DNA of 64,000 nt from Candidatus Aenigmatarchaeota archaeon (GTDB lineage Archaea > Aenigmatarchaeota > Aenigmatarchaeia > CG10238-14 > SCSR01): positions 352,001 through 416,000 of the forward strand of contig JAVZHQ010000001.1 of assembly GCA_038998335.1 (NCBI GenBank). Direction: 5' to 3'. Positions within the stretch are counted from its first letter, which is position 1. Each line of letters begins with the position of its first letter. The position numbers were made by a program, and so were the translations under genes. A model generated the notes under the pieces. It worked only from the letters and a program-made list of their open reading frames with translations. It was not told where the DNA came from and searched no databases. Shown here piece by piece: positions 53,780 to 64,000 of this stretch.

Positions 53780-53854
53780 GGCCCGATTAGCGTAGCCTGG
53801 TTAGCGCGCAGGCCTGTGGAGCCTGAAGGCCGGGTTCAAATCCCGGGTCGGGCC
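53780..53854 (+). tRNA. tRNA-His(GTG) with encoded G-1
   Basis: G-GCCCGAT/GTCGGGC-C, CAGGC-CT-GTG-GA-GCCTG. Confidence 0.95.
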
Positions 53855-53998
53855 CAAATTTCTCATCCTTCAAACCCACAGAAGAATTTTTGGATATTTT
53901 GGTAAACTTAAGTAGTTTCAGGATTAAACTTCATCTTTCACAAGAAATTTTAAAAATTTAAAAATTTGATTTAAATTAACAGTTAAAAGTGGAAAAAT

Positions 53999-55646: not shown

Positions 55647-57193
<1,547 letters not shown>

Positions 57194-57309
57194 TAAGTCT
57201 TTGTGTGCGGTAATACCTCTAGGCACCAAAAATCGCTACCTTTTTTCTTTCTCGGTCAAAAAAAATAGAGGCTTTAATTAAAAATAAATGTTAGACGTCT
57301 AACAAAAAT

Positions 57310-57765
57310 TTAAATTCGATCTTGATCTTTAAGGAACTCTAAGGTTTGGAGAAGTAATTCTTCAAAACGATAAAGAGCTTTTTTGTTTCCAAAAATTTCT
57401 ATAATACCAAAATTTGTAGGAAAGTCTCTTAACTTCCACATCTCATAAGGATAAGGGAATAATCTGTCAACGAGATTTTTTTCTTGTAGATAAAAAGCTA
57501 AATCCCTAACAATGCCTTTATCACAGAACTCTAGTTCAAAAATCGTTGGCGAATAATCATCACAACTGTGCACACCTAAACAAACCTTCGAGAATTTTGA
57601 CAGAACTTTTATTTTACTTTCCTTTCTCGCAAAACATTCCAAGTCAACAAAAATAAAATTCCCATTATTATCGTACTTCTTCATCAGTTTTAAGCAATAG
57701 TTTCTCGCATCTCTATCCTTATCTAACCCGAAAAGAATTCCAACATAGTTTTTTACTTCTGTCAT
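57310..57765 (-). CDS. Hypothetical protein
   Basis: 151-aa ATG ORF. Confidence 0.55.
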   Translation of the reverse strand: MTEVKNYVGILFGLDKDRDARNYCLKLMKKYDNNGNFIFVDLECFARKESKIKVLSKFSKVCLGVHSCDDYSPTIFELEFCDKGIVRDLAFYLQEKNLVDRLFPYPYEMWKLRDFPTNFGIIEIFGNKKALYRFEELLLQTLEFLKDQDRI

Positions 57766-57792
57766 CTTGAAAATAAAAATACTTTAAAAGAT

Positions 57793-58599
57793 TTAACTCT
57801 TAACTATTTGACCCAGGAAATAACTAGCTATTTCAAATTTACCAGTTCTTAGGAAACCAGTCGTATGATCTCTCAGCAAATATATAGTTTCCCTAAGCAT
57901 GAGAGTATGCGAAGGAGTAATGTAAGGAATTATGTAATTGTTGTTAAAACCTTGTAAAGAAGCTTTTTCTAAGCATTTCCTTATATCTTCTTTAAAGAAA
58001 TTAAAAGCTAAATCAAAACTTTTGAACCTTGAGTCTAAGCCAGAAATCAAGGCCAAGTTGTTTTTTCTAGCATAATTTATAGCTTCTTTGTTTGCTTTTT
58101 TAAGACCCTTTTTTAATGAAGGAATAGATTCCAAGTAATAGCTTACTTCTATGAAAGGTTTGTGACAAATTTCACCTTTTTCGTAAAGTTTAATTATCTC
58201 GTCTGCTCTTTTACCCAACCCGCAAGGTCCAAACTGGTGCGGAACGACAATAAATCCTTCATCCCTTTCTATGCTCTTGCAAACATCTTCTAAATTTTTT
58301 GGTGAGATCTTGTTTTCCCATCTTTCTGGAGTTAAGCATAAACCCAAAATATGATAATTGTCGAAAGTCAAAAATTCTAAACCAAAAAGCAAGTTTTCTT
58401 TTTTTGCTTTAAGGTAAGATTTGATCTCTTTGAAAGCTTTTATCGGCAAATCGATTTTTTCACACGCAAAAGCTTTATCAGTAAGAATAAGATAATCTAC
58501 TTTGCTTTTTTCAAAATCTTCTGCTAATTTTTTTGAAGTTTTTCCTAGGTTAAGTTTTTCTCCTTCTTTTGTATGGTAATGGATTGTTACTAAAGGCAT
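57793..58599 (-). CDS. Divergent PHP-domain-like protein
   Basis: HYHT, LILTD, GLE, HILG, VPH, GLDS. Confidence 0.6.
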   Translation of the reverse strand: MPLVTIHYHTKEGEKLNLGKTSKKLAEDFEKSKVDYLILTDKAFACEKIDLPIKAFKEIKSYLKAKKENLLFGLEFLTFDNYHILGLCLTPERWENKISPKNLEDVCKSIERDEGFIVVPHQFGPCGLGKRADEIIKLYEKGEICHKPFIEVSYYLESIPSLKKGLKKANKEAINYARKNNLALISGLDSRFKSFDLAFNFFKEDIRKCLEKASLQGFNNNYIIPYITPSHTLMLRETIYLLRDHTTGFLRTGKFEIASYFLGQIVKS

Positions 58600-58654
58600 A
58601 CTTATTTAAATAGCTCTAATCTTCAAATCTATTGCTCAAAAGTAAAGTTTTATT

Positions 58655-59389
58655 CTATGTAATATAAGGTTTGTAATTTTCTCCAAAAGCTCCCATAATC
58701 ATTTTTTTTAATTCTTTCTCGAAGAAGCTCCTACAAGTTTTATAAAATGGATAAAATATTTTATATATACTTTCACTTTTCTTTTCATAATCCACAAACT
58801 TCGCTTTCAGTTTTTCTCTTGTGTACTCGTACAATTCTTTGGTACTGATTGTTTGAATTTCATTACAACCATAAAACTTTCTAAAAGTACATAATTGAGG
58901 GTTGGCAATCCCTTTATCATATTCTTGGATTTTAATTTTTTTACCCCATTCCTTAGAGGAATTTATCAACCCGATTTTATAAGGATTTTCCCGATCCGAC
59001 AACCTACAGATTAAAATGCTTTCGCTTAGTTCTTTTCCTGGTACAGGCATAATAGAAGCGATAAGAAAATAATCACAAAAATATTGAATTCCTTTTATCT
59101 TTTCTTCGTCCAGGAAAGTTGAAGAATTGTGAAGGATTTTTCTTACCGGTGCCCCTGGACCCTCGACTATAGAATGATTCAAGAGAGACGGCCTTGAATA
59201 TAATAAAGTGAGAAAACTTAAACCGATTAAATGACCTGTAAGGGGTTCTTGTACTTCTTTATCTCTTCTGAAAAGTTCAAACATAAAAATGTCCAAAACC
59301 TGTACTCCATTTAAACCAGTTTTTTCTTTGGCTTCCTCAAGAGTTGATTGAAATTCTGCCCACATTGCTTCCTCTTCTTGGATATCCAT
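58655..59389 (-). CDS. Hypothetical protein
   Basis: 244-aa ATG ORF. Confidence 0.55.
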   Translation of the reverse strand: MDIQEEEAMWAEFQSTLEEAKEKTGLNGVQVLDIFMFELFRRDKEVQEPLTGHLIGLSFLTLLYSRPSLLNHSIVEGPGAPVRKILHNSSTFLDEEKIKGIQYFCDYFLIASIMPVPGKELSESILICRLSDRENPYKIGLINSSKEWGKKIKIQEYDKGIANPQLCTFRKFYGCNEIQTISTKELYEYTREKLKAKFVDYEKKSESIYKIFYPFYKTCRSFFEKELKKMIMGAFGENYKPYIT

Positions 59390-59566
59390 TATAAGAAATA
59401 GAAAGTAGAAGAATTTAAACCTTTTGACAAAAAGAGTCGTTAGGTTTCTAACACTTTAGAATTTTTAAACTATAAAGCCTTATCTCATAAGAACAAAGCT
59501 CCTTGAACTTAAAAACTTAAGGATAAAATTTTATCTTCATCTTAACTAAATTAGAAATAATTAATT

Positions 59567-59638
59567 GGGCCGGTAGATCAACGGTAGATCGCCTCGCTTG
59601 CAACGAGGAGGTTCGGGGTTCGAATCCCCGCCGGTCCA
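59567..59638 (+). tRNA. tRNA-Ala(TGC)
   Basis: GGGCCGG/CCGGTCC with G3:U70, CCTCG-CT-TGC-AA-CGAGG. Confidence 0.96.
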
Positions 59639-59712
59639 TACTCTTAATAAAAGTTATCGAGAAAATCCAAATGAGTTTAAAAATTTTTATTTTTAGTTGT
59701 AAATTAAATCAA

Positions 59713-60273
59713 ATGGAAGTCCCATCTTGGTATGTAATAACGGGAGAACCTTCTTCTGGTAAGACAACAATTTTAAAAAAATTGGAAGAATTAGGATACT
59801 TTGTTGTTCCAGAGACTGCAAGAATTTTGATAGATAAATATATCAAAAAAAGGTATACCAGCACAAAAATTAAGAAAAAACGAAAGTCGATTTCAAAAAC
59901 AAGTTTTAAAGTTGAAATTAAAAATTGAAGAAACTGTTCCTAAGGATAGAATTGTATTTTTTGACAGAGGTATTCCAGACAGTATAGCCTATTTCAAAAT
60001 TTGTGGGCTAGATACCAAGGAATTAGAAAAATATCAAGAAATAGATATAAAAAAATATTCTTTTTAGAGCAGCTACAATTCCAGCGAGATTATGTAAGAA
60101 TAGAAAATGAAGAAACTGTTAAAAAGTTAAATCAATTACTTCTGGAGACTTACAAAAATTTAGGCTACAACATTGTTCATATCCCAGTTTCTTCGGTTGA
60201 AAAAAGAGTAAGACTTATTTTTATTCAATTTATGATTTATTGGCACGGTATTGAAAAAATGTACAACTACTAA
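59713..60273 (+). pseudogene. AAA_28/NadR-like P-loop ATPase with two frameshifts
   Basis: ITGEPSSGKTT, VPETAR; middle segment FFDRGIPDS in shifted frame; C-terminal SVEKRV. Confidence 0.75.
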
Positions 60274-60409
60274 CTTTTTTAAAAAAAGGTTTCTTAACAA
60301 AAGTAAAACAAAAGCTTTAAATAGGATAAAGCTTTTAAATTATAAAAACTAATAAATTAGTTGCCGGTGTCGTTATGTCTGCTTAGCTTGAACATCGGCC
60401 TTTTTGTTT

Positions 60410-60467
60410 AGCTATGAGTTTGCCCTTCTAACTGATAAAAGATGAAGAAATGGGCACCTAACGAGCT
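60410..60467 (+). ncRNA. Box C/D sRNA A in 23S leader
   Basis: C ATGAGTT, D' CTGA, C' ATGAAGA, D ACGA; D guide antisense to A-loop 63499-63507. Confidence 0.8.
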
Positions 60468-60514
60468 TCCTTTGATGCGAATCCTTATTTTGATAATAAG
60501 GGTTTAAGAGTTGA

Positions 60515-60576
60515 GGTTGATGACTTGACTGACAGCGTCTGATAAAAGATGAAGAACGAACTGTCTTTATGAAACC
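60515..60576 (+). ncRNA. Box C/D sRNA B in 23S leader
   Basis: GGTT/AACC stem, C TGATGA, D' CTGA, C' ATGAAGA, D ATGA; both guides antisense to the peptidyl transferase centre (PTC). Confidence 0.85.
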
Positions 60577-62618
60577 AGAAGATGAAACTACCATAGGATA
60601 AGCTGGTCAAGAGGTCCTGGCAACAGTAGCCCACTTGGTGGATGGCTCGGCTTGGTTAGCCGAAGAAGGCCGTGCCAAGCTGCGATAAGCCTGGGTTATC
60701 CGCATGGAGGAGCTGACCCCAGGATTGCCGAATGGGATTCCTAGCCCGTTAAGGGCTATTTCGGAAGAAAAGGGAACGCGCCGAAGTGAAGCATCTTAGT
60801 AGGCGCAGGAAAAGAAATCAAACGAGATTCGGTGAGTAGGGGCGACCGAAAGCCGAACAGGACAAACCGAACTTTCTTTCGAAGAGGAAGAAAGGATGTG
60901 GAGTTACAGGACTTGGGCCTTTCCTAGCTTGCTAACCTGAAGTGAGCTGGAAAGCTCCACCATAGAGGGTGATAGTCCCGTAGGGGAAGGCAAGAAGGAA
61001 AATGCCAAGTCTCCTGAGTACCATTCCTTGGATATGGAGTGGGAATTTGGGTGGCATTAACATCCAATCCTAAATACTAACCAAGTCCGATAGCGGACTA
61101 GTATCGTGAGAGAAAGCTGAAAAGTACCGCGAAAGCGGGGTGAAAAGAGCCTGAAACCAAGTTGGGCATAGTCAGCTAGGGCATGAAAGGTGCTACTCCG
61201 AAGGAAATTCTCGCAAGAGAAGAGTACGAGGAGTAGCTTACAGTGTCCTAGCATCCGTTCTGAAAAACGGGGCAGGGAGTTTGCTCGAGTAGTGAGGTTA
61301 AGGGGTTTAAACCTCGAAGCCAAAGCGAAAGCGACAAGCCCGTAGTCTCGCAAGAGACGTGGGGCGGGGTGTGAAAGCGCCTGAAATTACTCGAGCAAGA
61401 CCCGAAGCCGGTCGATCTAATCCTGGGCAGGATGAAGTTCCTCGAAAGAGGAATGGAGGTCCGAACCGGTGCTGAGACCCAATCGCTCGGTTGACCCAGG
61501 ATTAGGGGTGAAAAGCCAATCGAGACCGGTGATAGCTGGTTCCTCCCGAAATGAGCGTCAGCTCAGCCTGGTTGGAGGTAAGCAGTAGGGTAAAGAGACT
61601 GATTGGACGGTCAAGGTGCGAAAGCATCAGCCGTCCTGTCAAACTCTGAATCTACTGCTGCCTGAGAAGACCGGAGTGAGGGTACTGGGTTAAGCTCGGT
61701 ACCCAAAAGGGGAACAACCCAACCTGGGGTTAAGATCCCTAAATGCCGGCTAAACGAAGAAGGGAGTCCAAATCCTTAGACAGCGGGGCTGTAGGCTTAG
61801 AAGCAGCCATCAGTTAAAAAGTGCGTAACAGCTTACCCGCCGAGGGTTTGGGCCCTGAAAATGGAAGGGACTAAGCCGGCTGTCGATACCCCAGACCTGC
61901 GAAAGCAGGGGGTAGGGAGGCGTTCTGCATGGGTAGAAGCTTGTTCGTGAGAACAAGTGGACCGTGCAGAATTGAAGATCCTGCCATGAGTAGCAGCATA
62001 GCTGGGTGAAAATCCCAGCCGCCTGAACCCTCAGGGTTTGCCAGCAATGTTCGTCAGCTGGCAGTTAGTCGATCCTAAGGGCGCTCTTAACCGAAGCGCT
62101 CAAAAGGGAAATCGGTTAATATTCCGATACCATGGAGGTACGTGCGGCAACGCAAGCTAGCTTTCCGACGTTTCGGGATAGGCCGACGCAAGTTAACTGC
62201 CGAAGCCTGCAGAGTCTCGTAACGAGGAGAAGCAGGTGAAAGCAGGAATAGCTCCGCGTATGCGGAGTTCGGCCGATTCCTGGAACCCGTGAAAAGGGAA
62301 GCTAGAAGGATCCTCCATGATCGTACCAAGAACCGACACAGGTAGGGTCGCTGAGAAGGCGAAGGCGTGTTGGGAGAACCCAATCCAGGGAAATCGGCAA
62401 ATTGGCCCCGTATCTTCGGTAGAAGGGGTGCCTGTTCTCTCGAAAGGGAGAACAGGTCGCAGTGACAAGGGGGAAGCGACTGTTTAACAAAAACACAGGA
62501 GACTGCTAGTCCGAAAGGATTTGTACAGTCTCTGAGGTCTGCCCAGTGCCGGTGTGTGAAACCCGGTTCCAACCGGGAGAAGCCCCGGCAAACGGCGGCG
62601 GTAACTCTGACCGTCGTA

Positions 62619-62664
62619 ACTCAGGGCGGTCATCTGATTTGATGATACGCCGCCTGGGCGACAT
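62619..62664 (+). other. 23S BHB intron (46 nt) at about 1927 with D'/C' K-loop
   Basis: GTCG-TA|A ... CGAC-AT|A. Confidence 0.9.
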
Positions 62665-62792
62665 AAGTAGCGTAATCCCTTGCCGTTTAATTGACGGCCC
62701 GTTCAACGGCTTAACGACTTCCCCACTGTCCTGGGTTGGGACCCAGCGAAAATGCTGTTCTGGTGAATAGGCCAGAGACCTCCGGTGGGAAA

Positions 62793-62823
<31 letters not shown>

Positions 62824-62976
62824 GCGTTGCTGTAAGGTTGAAATTGCATAGAGTAGCTGGGACTCGCTATTAGGCGCAGGCTTCGGCCGAGGCTGAGAGG
62901 AAAGTGTAACACCAGCCCTTTTCAACCTTACGGCTTACCCGTAAGGGGACAGCGTCAGATGGGCAGTTCGGCTGGG

Positions 62977-63060
62977 AGTTTAGGAGCTAGAATGAAGAGT
63001 CCCTTAAGTTATGAAAAAATGATTAAGGGCATACGGTCTGAACAGCTCCTAAACCAGCAA
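62977..63060 (+). other. 23S BHB intron (84 nt) in P-loop (2252/2253) encoding a full box C/D sRNA
   Basis: GCTG-GG|A ... CAGC-AA|G; removal restores GGCTGGGGCGG. Confidence 0.93.
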
Positions 63061-63115
63061 GCGGTACGCCCTTGGTAAGAGATCAAGGGCGCCCAAAGCT
63101 CAGCTCATCCGGGTC

Positions 63116-63212
63116 ATGTCAGAAGTTGAAGCTATGATTACACTGCTCCAGAATGATTTAAAGATGAGTATGGAGGTAGCTTATGAGCTTTCATCAACTT
63201 CTGACACCCGAA
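63116..63212 (+). other. 23S BHB intron (97 nt) at about 2306 encoding a full box C/D sRNA
   Basis: CGGG-TC|A ... CCCG-AA|A; removal restores CCGGGTCAGAAATCCGG. Confidence 0.92.
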
Positions 63213-63384
63213 AGAAATCCGGAGTAGAGTGTAAGCGCAAAAGCTGGGTTGATTGGATCCCGCAAAGCGAGGGATCCAAGGGCGAAAGCCTGGGCTAGCG
63301 ATACATCGGTTCGCCTTAATGGCGGCCGGTGGTATCAGAAAAGCTACCTCGGGGATAATGGGCCCGTGGCCGGTGAAAGCCCAC

Positions 63385-63427
63385 AGCTCAGGGGTTTTCA
63401 TCCCACTCGATAGCGACGAGCGGGTAA
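63385..63427 (+). other. 23S BHB intron (43 nt) at about 2477
   Basis: GCCC-AC|A ... GGGT-AA|A; removal restores AGCCCACATTGAC. Confidence 0.88.
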
Positions 63428-63526
63428 ATTGACCCGGCGCGTTGGTGCGTCGCTGTCGGCTCCCCCCCTCCTGGCCGTGCAGTAGCGGCCAAGGGTACAG
63501 GTGCCCACTGGTTAAAGGGGGACGTT

Positions 63527-63560
<34 letters not shown>

Positions 63561-64000
63561 GCTATCTACCGGAGGTGCTGGCTGTCTGACCGGAAGGATG
63601 GGTGAGTACGAAAGGAACACCCATCCGTGGCCTCTGGTCTACCGGTTGTTCATCGCACAGCCGGGCAGCTAAGCCATAGCGGATAAGTCCTGAAGGCATC
63701 TAAGGACGAAACCGCCCGGGAAAATAGGCAGCCAATTGCTCTGCTATTCCGCAAGGAACGGTAGAGCAACGAGGGCTCTCCTAGACGAGGAGGTTGATAG
63801 GAAGGGGGTGTACGCGCCAAGCTTTCGAGCGAGGCGTTCAGCCCGCCTTTCCTAATCGCCCGAGGTTGCCAGGACTTGATAAGCAGCTTATCCTATGGTA
63901 GTTTCAAAAGTTTTTTTCTAAAATAAAAAAGTTAAACTTTTTTTTCTTAATTTAATTTGTGAAGATTGAAGTGTACATAAGAAATAGAGAAGTTGAAATT

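Follow-up and report, generated by a model that had tools for sequence, protein, structure and literature searches.

The rRNA operon and its interrupted 23S gene

The stretch of DNA analysed here (64 kb, hereafter the window) belongs to a genome of 1.0 Mb with 33% G+C on 9 contigs (G000), and the DNA runs that contain it carry the label hot springs metagenome. The closest relatives of the fibrillarin of this genome are 79-92% identical to it and come from Candidatus Aenigmatarchaeota. An rRNA operon occupies the end of the window with 16S at 55647-57193, tRNA-Ala at 59566-59639 and 23S at 60614-63875, the latter on the + strand like the intron features and rRNA targets described below. The 23S gene, which hosts the intron under study, matches the Rfam archaeal LSU model (RF02540) with 2633.5 bits over model positions 1-2987, and its length of 3262 nt compares with 2987 positions in the model. 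Four inserts lie between 62600 and 63500, measuring 48, 86, 101 and 45 nt against 2, 2, 4 and 2 in the model. The third of them is located in helix 84 and has 101 nt in place of the 4 nt between model positions 2400 and 2405. The 16S gene, 1547 nt long against a model of 1478 positions, may also contain an insert, and the spacer that separates it from 23S (57194-60613) measures about 3.4 kb. Besides a tRNA-His at 53781-53855 of the window the genome has a second, atypical tRNA-His(GTG) with a 6-bp anticodon stem (G000:C2:27034-27105).

A bulge-helix-bulge intron in helix 84

The third insert contains an intron of 97 nt (63116-63212). Its removal gives GGGTC|AGAAATCC, which is the sequence of seven intron-less relatives; borders at 63117-63213 would yield an identical spliced product. 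An alignment to a copy of E. coli 23S places the intron between positions 2303 and 2304 (local numbering), which we take to be about 2306 in standard E. coli numbering by conversion through landmark positions. The intron and its flanks show the anatomy of a bulge-helix-bulge (BHB): the exon strand CGGG (63110-63113) pairs with the intron strand CCCG (63207-63210) in a central helix of 4 bp, which separates two 3-nt bulges on opposite strands, TCA (63114-63116) with the 5′ splice site and AAA (63211-63213) with the 3′ splice site. The TCA bulge lies between the central helix and a 13-bp intron stem (63117-63129 with 63194-63206). As the outer exon-exon helix is only about 2 bp long the motif is of the relaxed form. 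Cleavage of a BHB occurs after the second base of the bulge, and the 5′ cut predicted by this rule agrees with the junction found in RNA contigs (see below), which together with the anatomy also places the 3′ splice site.

Both helices are supported by covariation in an alignment of 12 relatives. All 12 tested pairs of the intron stem have changed on both sides, with 96.5% of cells paired, and the same holds for two of the four pairs of the central helix (97.9% paired), giving 14 of 16 pairs and 96.8% of cells for the two helices together. Sliding the partners by 1-3 columns reduced pairing to 34-53% and none of 500 shuffles attained the observed values. Where the exon of a relative reads GAGG, the intron strand of the central helix reads CTTC or CCTC. 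Both exon anchors are present at 22 loci of relatives. Of these, 15 have an insert at exactly the helix-84 site; in the remaining seven the loop is uninterrupted and identical to the predicted spliced product. The intron is longer (150-231 nt) in G007, G017 and G008 (loci L010, L011 and L017), with extra sequence inside or beside the core described in the next section.

The junction itself is found in RNA libraries. Contigs from two metatranscriptome runs (X11 and X14, both of one single study) that end at 63116 read on as GAAATCCGGAGT, the start of the 3′ exon, and contigs starting at 63213 are preceded by ...CATCCGGGTC, the end of the 5′ exon, with short overhangs of 8-16 letters. DNA contigs of runs X1 and X2 span both this intron and the one at 62977-63060 unbroken. 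The spliced exon-exon junction is thus present in the RNA libraries, and a near-identical strain devoid of the intron would produce identical letters. Inside the two introns, the bins 62998-63029 and 63126-63189 have no cover in X11 and X14, and exon bins have hundreds to thousands; ordinary libraries lose such small RNAs, and we counted the zero cover neither as absence of an sRNA nor as proof of splicing. RNA contigs that join across either of these introns were not seen, nor were back-joined contigs that would mark a circular intron, which these runs could not be expected to yield. The original prediction of an intron in the loop of helix 84 is thus borne out by covariation, by relatives with and without the insert and by the junction contigs. 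When the single sequence is folded to minimum energy (z = -4.2), the long stem is retained and the mature helix-84 stem is favoured over the BHB central helix, which suggests that two conformations compete.

The intron body as a putative dual-guide C/D box sRNA

The elements of a C/D box sRNA follow one another within the intron: a C box ATGATTA (63134-63140), a D′ guide CACTGCTCCAGA of 12 nt (63141-63152), a D′ box ATGA (63153-63156), a linker of 7 nt, a C′ box ATGAGTA (63164-63170), a D guide TGGAGGTAGCTT of 12 nt (63171-63182) and a D box ATGA (63183-63186). They are enclosed by a closing stem AAGC (63129-63132) / GCTT (63187-63190), inside the 13-bp intron stem. The boxes and the AAGC/GCTT stem were found where the original prediction had put them. 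Both guide spacers are exactly 12 nt long, as expected of an archaeal C/D sRNA. The boxes are aligned in 55 family members, the C box through its TGA core, and conservation of the boxes in homologues, which had been set beforehand as a test, extends to all four of them across 34 intron-borne copies. The consensus of the class is RUGAUGA for the C box and CUGA for the D box. The C box of the intron agrees with it at six of seven positions and the C′ box departs at two, while the D and D′ boxes are ATGA instead of the textbook CTGA with the TGA core kept.

A strict pattern (ATGA-N16-TGA-N3-9-ATGA-N16-TGA) has two matches in the window, at 62992-63041 and 63134-63186, and both fall inside 23S inserts. 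Dinucleotide shuffles gave a mean of 0.00 matches, with 0 of 100 containing any, in keeping with the earlier claims that the intron encodes a full C/D sRNA and that it is the second such intron in the 23S gene, the first being 62977-63060. A looser pattern run over the whole 1.0-Mb genome gave five matches, a number not above that of shuffles (1-10 in 20 shuffles); three of the five lie within the rRNA operon. No curated Rfam C/D family was reached, the best being sR35 with 17.7 bits against a gathering score of 60; these families are guide-specific, so that the miss bears on identity with a described sRNA and not on membership of the class. By its boxes, its spacers, the register of its guides and the protein genes of the genome (see below) the intron body appears to be a dual-guide archaeal C/D box sRNA, for which accumulation and methylation are predicted.

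The D guide and U63345 in helix 74

The D guide pairs with 63341-63350 in helix 74 through ten Watson-Crick pairs out of ten. This is its single best site in 16S and 23S, and the match was equalled by none of 400 shuffled guides. The fifth guide base from the D box meets U63345, the predicted site of 2′-O-methylation, and this register is fixed in relatives. We take U63345 to be the counterpart of E. coli U2438. According to PMC3351187, U2438 stands opposite A2071 in E. coli and pairs with it in helix 74.

The D target could be recovered in 37 rows of the 55 family members and positions 2-10 of the duplex are all paired in 29 of these 37. Guide and target have changed together in several genomes: G083 has TAACT in the guide and AGTTA in the target, G007 has TAGTT and AACTA, and G028 and G033 both have GGGG and CCCC. 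One internal mismatch occurs in 8 of the 37 rows, in G112 adjacent to the target base, and in seven rows with GGGAGTAGCT or GGGTGTAGCT the duplex needs a bulge of one base in the guide. The assignment of the D guide to domain V and U63345 (about U2438), as first proposed from the window alone, is upheld by the complete pairing, the unique best site and the covariation.

The D′ guide and G62975 in the P-loop

The D′ guide leads to a target that is discontinuous in the genome. An unbiased scan in relatives found its partner to be the P-loop of helix 80, GCTGGGGCGGTA, with the N+5 position at the second G of four. In the genomic DNA of G000 the P-loop is split by another intron of 84 nt (62977-63060), whose spliced junction (62976/63061) is seen in RNA-library contigs of X11 and X14; one RNA contig matches over 170 bases with zero differences as far as the exact end of the upstream exon (62807-62976). 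The 5′ half of the target (62972-62976) adjoins the 3′ half (63061-63065) only once the helix-80 intron has been spliced. On the spliced 23S the D′ guide forms 10 bp (8 Watson-Crick and 2 G-U) with N+5 at 62975, the second predicted site of 2′-O-methylation. By our own conversion of the numbering we take G62975 to be E. coli G2251.

For G000 alone the D′ match is marginal, being equalled by 19 of 400 shuffled guides, and the case for this target therefore rests on the relatives. When the rRNA loci of 38 genomes were scanned, each with its own guide, the P-loop GCTGGGG(C/T)GGTA recurred in 19 genomes and the next sites in two and one. Among the 34 relatives with this type of guide and an extracted P-loop, positions 2-10 are all paired in 26, and one internal mismatch is present in eight. 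The guide variants differ by transitions, all of which preserve pairing to GGGG(C/U)GG, and in G014 and G103 an A at guide position 8 is matched by a U in the target. Methylation at the G2251 site is described as conserved in E. coli, yeast, human and Arabidopsis; RlmB is responsible for it in E. coli and C/D snoRNPs are in Arabidopsis (PMC11542601). For haloarchaea, table 1 of PMC11542601 equates Gm1950 of Haloarcula marismortui with E. coli G2251 whereas PMC2584109 places Gm1950 of Haloarcula at E. coli 1909 in helix 69; because of this conflict we make no claim on haloarchaea.

The original prediction had instead assigned the D′ guide to the neighbouring 3′ exon, with methylation of G63222 (about G2316) in helix 84. 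Pairing does exist there: at 63218-63227 nine of ten positions are paired, one of them as G-U, and the tenth is an A-C mismatch. The guide of G021 has CCGGA which abolishes the mismatch, and the intron of tRNA-Trp is reported to act on its own exons (PMC7994747). The mismatch, however, is two positions away from the base to be methylated, and 61283 is an equally good site. More importantly the guide does not follow its supposed partner, since it stays constant in relatives where the helix-84 strand TCCGGAG is replaced by TCTCGAG, and it is equally conserved in free-standing copies of the sRNA (described below) from genomes that have no helix-84 intron, including some such as G019 in which helix 84 does not match. 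The P-loop on the other hand accounts for all guide variants. We consider it extremely unlikely that G63222 is the D′ target, and the conserved partner appears to be the P-loop, which a reader of the genomic sequence could not see because it is split by the helix-80 intron.

Other candidates for the D′ guide did not hold. A 16S site (56259-56270) offers nine contiguous pairs in G000 and is poor with their own guides in all 15 relatives checked, and the atypical tRNA-His on contig C2 gives nine pairs, which is chance level. The two guides could also pair with each other (CTCCA with TGGAG), but relatives, as judged by eye, have not conserved this pairing. A genome-wide search with the inferred D′ target motif found none in stable RNAs because the genomic P-loop is split, and a genome-wide scan of the guides with one mismatch allowed returned hundreds of chance matches and was uninformative. 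Three members of one genus (G078, G075 and G010; loci L063, L064 and L026) keep the helix-84 intron and the D guide; their D′ guide (..ACCTTTGAT..) is unrelated and lacks pairing to the P-loop.

Free-standing and intron-borne orthologues

A covariance model built from 12 helix-84 introns was searched against 118 genomes of the order and found matches in 80. The 55 members that were aligned comprise 34 in the helix-84 intron, 20 that are free-standing and one in an intron at another site of 23S. The 20 free-standing genes have terminal stems of their own, lie in AT-rich DNA and carry the same D and D′ guides; in six genomes we could see both the free-standing copy and a helix 84 without intron. 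The exceptional member, in G069 (L070, contig C18, about 1501-1583), is the same two-guide sRNA in an intron at a site equivalent to about 62957 of the window, some 18 nt upstream of its own P-loop target. Because an sRNA with these two guides is encoded by a free-standing gene in relatives that lack the intron, the intron copy appears to be an orthologue that has come to lie within the rRNA gene. It is the only copy found in G000, which has a single match to the covariance model, as do most intron-bearing genomes.

Across 151 sampled genomes of the phylum, every match of at least 45 bits falls within the order of the window. Weaker matches occur in 12 genomes of other families, all labelled as the same class, and in one of them, G200, helix 84 has an intron with just one C..D unit, which bears the D guide. 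Further free-standing copies, at least three archaeal loci, are among the matches listed for a loose pattern in Aenigmatarchaeota, Micrarchaeota and Undinarchaeota, most of the other listed matches being chance ones in bacteria. The distribution of free-standing copies and weaker matches suggests that the free-standing state is probably the older one.

This family also bears on whether the guides are still in use. The intron could be real and its C/D core a relic that was captured once, the excised RNA being degraded and the two sites being unmethylated or served in another way. Such decay would fit the off-consensus boxes, the single mismatches in the guide duplexes of several relatives, the exchange of the D′ guide in one clade (G078, G075 and G010) and the single remaining C..D unit of G200. 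Yet both guides, the four boxes and both 12-nt spacers have been retained in 34 intron-borne copies, and changes matched to the target are found in copies that are themselves intron-borne (G083 and G007 for the D guide, G014 and G103 for the D′ guide). Nor does the covariance model detect a second copy in G000 or in most intron-bearing genomes, which have one match each. A decayed core is in our view very unlikely.

Partner proteins and proposed course of events

G000 encodes the proteins that such an RNA would use. Fibrillarin (281.9 bits) adjoins Nop5 (230.3 bits) and an L7Ae family protein is found with 109.3 bits, all three above the Pfam cut-offs, and the splicing proteins are present as EndA (95.1 bits) and RtcB (547.2 bits). 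The RtcB match (G000:C1:120751-122073) reads through two TAA codons near its start, with an open frame of 410 amino acids behind them; possible reasons for these codons are a start site located further downstream, an error or some other cause.

Taken together our data make it likely that helix 84 of the 23S gene contains a BHB intron that harbours a dual-guide C/D sRNA directing methylation of U63345 and G62975. The pre-23S rRNA would be transcribed with its introns included, and the exon CGGG (63110-63113) would pair with the intron CCCG (63207-63210) to form the 4-bp helix with its two 3-nt bulges on top of the 13-bp stem. EndA would cut both bulges and RtcB would join the exons, restoring the loop of helix 84, and the same ligase probably circularises the excised intron. 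L7Ae, Nop5 and fibrillarin are expected to assemble on the two kink-turn motifs (C/D and C′/D′), while the intron is nascent or once it has been excised. The D guide would then pair with 63341-63350 and direct 2′-O-methylation of U63345 (about U2438) in helix 74, and the D′ guide would pair with the P-loop for methylation of G62975 (about G2251). As the P-loop is interrupted by the intron at 62977-63060 the D′ guide could bind only after that intron has been spliced, which would fix the order of events in G000: first splicing in helix 80 and then methylation of G2251.

A C/D RNP on the intron might alternatively serve mainly as a chaperone of folding or splicing, holding helix 74 and the P-loop or the shape of the BHB, and not as a methylation guide. 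The competition between the mature helix-84 stem and the BHB central helix would provide a use for it, neither target is more than about 140 nt away from the intron on the same transcript, and roles of this kind have been proposed for guide pairing (PMC4644070, PMC7994747). Against this, the free-standing copies of genomes without the intron have the same guides, and the conserved function should therefore not depend on the intron. For each box the fifth base moreover faces a single rRNA position that is constant across all relatives, which is a requirement for a methylation guide, and fibrillarin is encoded. We judge a role mainly as a chaperone to be quite unlikely and favour methylation of the two targets as the function of the intron-borne sRNA.

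Relation to known systems

The closest parallel to the helix-84 intron is the intron of pre-tRNA-Trp (Haloferax volcanii, and Pyrococcus sR50), likewise a BHB intron with a dual-guide C/D sRNA as its body (PMC7994747). That intron methylates its own host RNA, as predicted here, and its splicing and methylation also need ordering (PMC7994747). It differs in that the host here is 23S and the targets are about 130-140 nt away in helices 74 and 80 rather than in adjoining exon stems, that one target is split by a second intron and that relatives have free-standing orthologues. Free-standing archaeal C/D sRNAs have the same C-D′-C′-D order, 12-nt spacers and N+5 rule, and also targets near the peptidyl transferase centre and L7Ae, Nop5 and fibrillarin as partners (PMC7994747, PMC4644070). 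Unlike them the intron copy would have no promoter or terminator of its own. It would be transcribed within the pre-rRNA and freed by the tRNA-splicing endonuclease, and it has the 13-bp stem and the BHB at its ends and ATGA as its D boxes.

Archaeal rRNA introns, as described in Desulfurococcus, Staphylothermus, Pyrobaculum and other genera, share the BHB, splicing by EndA and a ligase, and patchy presence at a fixed site (PMC3608112, PMC4496867). Those described carry reading frames for homing endonucleases or of unknown function, or nothing, whereas the 97 nt of the helix-84 intron at about position 2306 appear to carry a guide RNA. Eukaryotic intronic C/D snoRNAs include guides for the same P-loop G (yeast Gm2619, human Gm4196, Arabidopsis Gm2620) and likewise reside in introns of genes for the translation apparatus and are co-expressed with their host (PMC11542601). 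Their introns, in contrast, are spliceosomal, they are released by exonuclease trimming, and their hosts are protein-coding or non-coding genes of pol II and never the rRNA itself.

An arrangement with a guide inside an intron was thus previously known from eukaryotic genes and one archaeal tRNA. A 2021 review gives tRNA introns, in the part that treats the matter, as the only intron context of archaeal C/D sRNAs (PMC7994747), and section 6 of a 2013 review asks whether archaeal rRNA introns yield non-coding RNAs (PMC3608112). In the relevant passages of two large archaeal guide surveys introns are mentioned only as sequences removed before the target search (PMC6009581, PMC4644070). We found no description of a C/D sRNA borne by an rRNA intron in the open-access literature. 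The novelty would accordingly lie in the combination of a true C/D sRNA with a true BHB intron, and in the host.

If our reading of helix 84 is correct, small archaeal rRNA introns of this class would acquire a function, and the rRNA itself would join one tRNA as an archaeal host of intron-borne methylation guides. The single guide family in three states (free-standing, in the helix-84 intron and in another 23S intron) forms a natural series that bears on how guide RNAs enter introns, a question central to the origin of snoRNA organisation in eukaryotes. Our reading further leads to a testable prediction on the order in which splicing and methylation occur at the P-loop, which is among the most conserved modified sites of the ribosome. 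For practical purposes, target searches for archaeal guides must use spliced rRNA, and annotators of DPANN genomes should check rRNA inserts for guide RNAs.

The rRNA operon as a possible host of its own guides

The intron that splits the P-loop (62977-63060) holds a complete candidate C/D sRNA of its own; it is identified as an insert relative to the model and supported by relatives, RNA contigs and the strict pattern. Its elements are ATGAAGA, 12 nt, ATGA, AAAA, ATGATTA, 12 nt and CTGA. Its guides pair with 16S and not with 23S, one by 11 of 11 Watson-Crick pairs at 56571-56581 (N+5 at 56575) and the other by 10 of 10 at 56863-56872 (N+5 at 56866). This helix-80 intron is present in 5 of the 36 relatives examined. 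The spacer contains a third C/D-like unit (60520-60572), which lies some 40 nt ahead of the 23S 5′ end. The guide that precedes the D box of this unit forms ten Watson-Crick pairs and one G-U with 63547-63557 (N+5 at 63550) and its D′ guide pairs over 9 bp at 63451-63459.

The rRNA operon may therefore carry three guides. That it acts as host of its own modification guides, with at least three C/D sRNAs located in the 23S leader, in the P-loop intron (guiding 16S) and in the helix-84 intron (G2251 and U2438), is a serious possibility that we stop short of calling probable. If it were true the supply of guides would be tied one-to-one to rRNA synthesis, and the delivery of guides would explain the persistence of small rRNA introns, which have long been regarded as selfish or without function. 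P-loop methylation would then constitute a built-in check on the order of splicing, and the operon would represent a counterpart of intron-encoded snoRNAs in a prokaryote, possibly their forerunner.

Two further small 23S inserts lie at 62616-62668 (48 nt) and 63384-63428 (45 nt). The former contains CTGA..TGATGA without a full C/D unit. Both inserts are skipped by RNA-library contigs, with several joints of 46-48 nt at 62616-62668 and one of 43 nt at 63384-63428.
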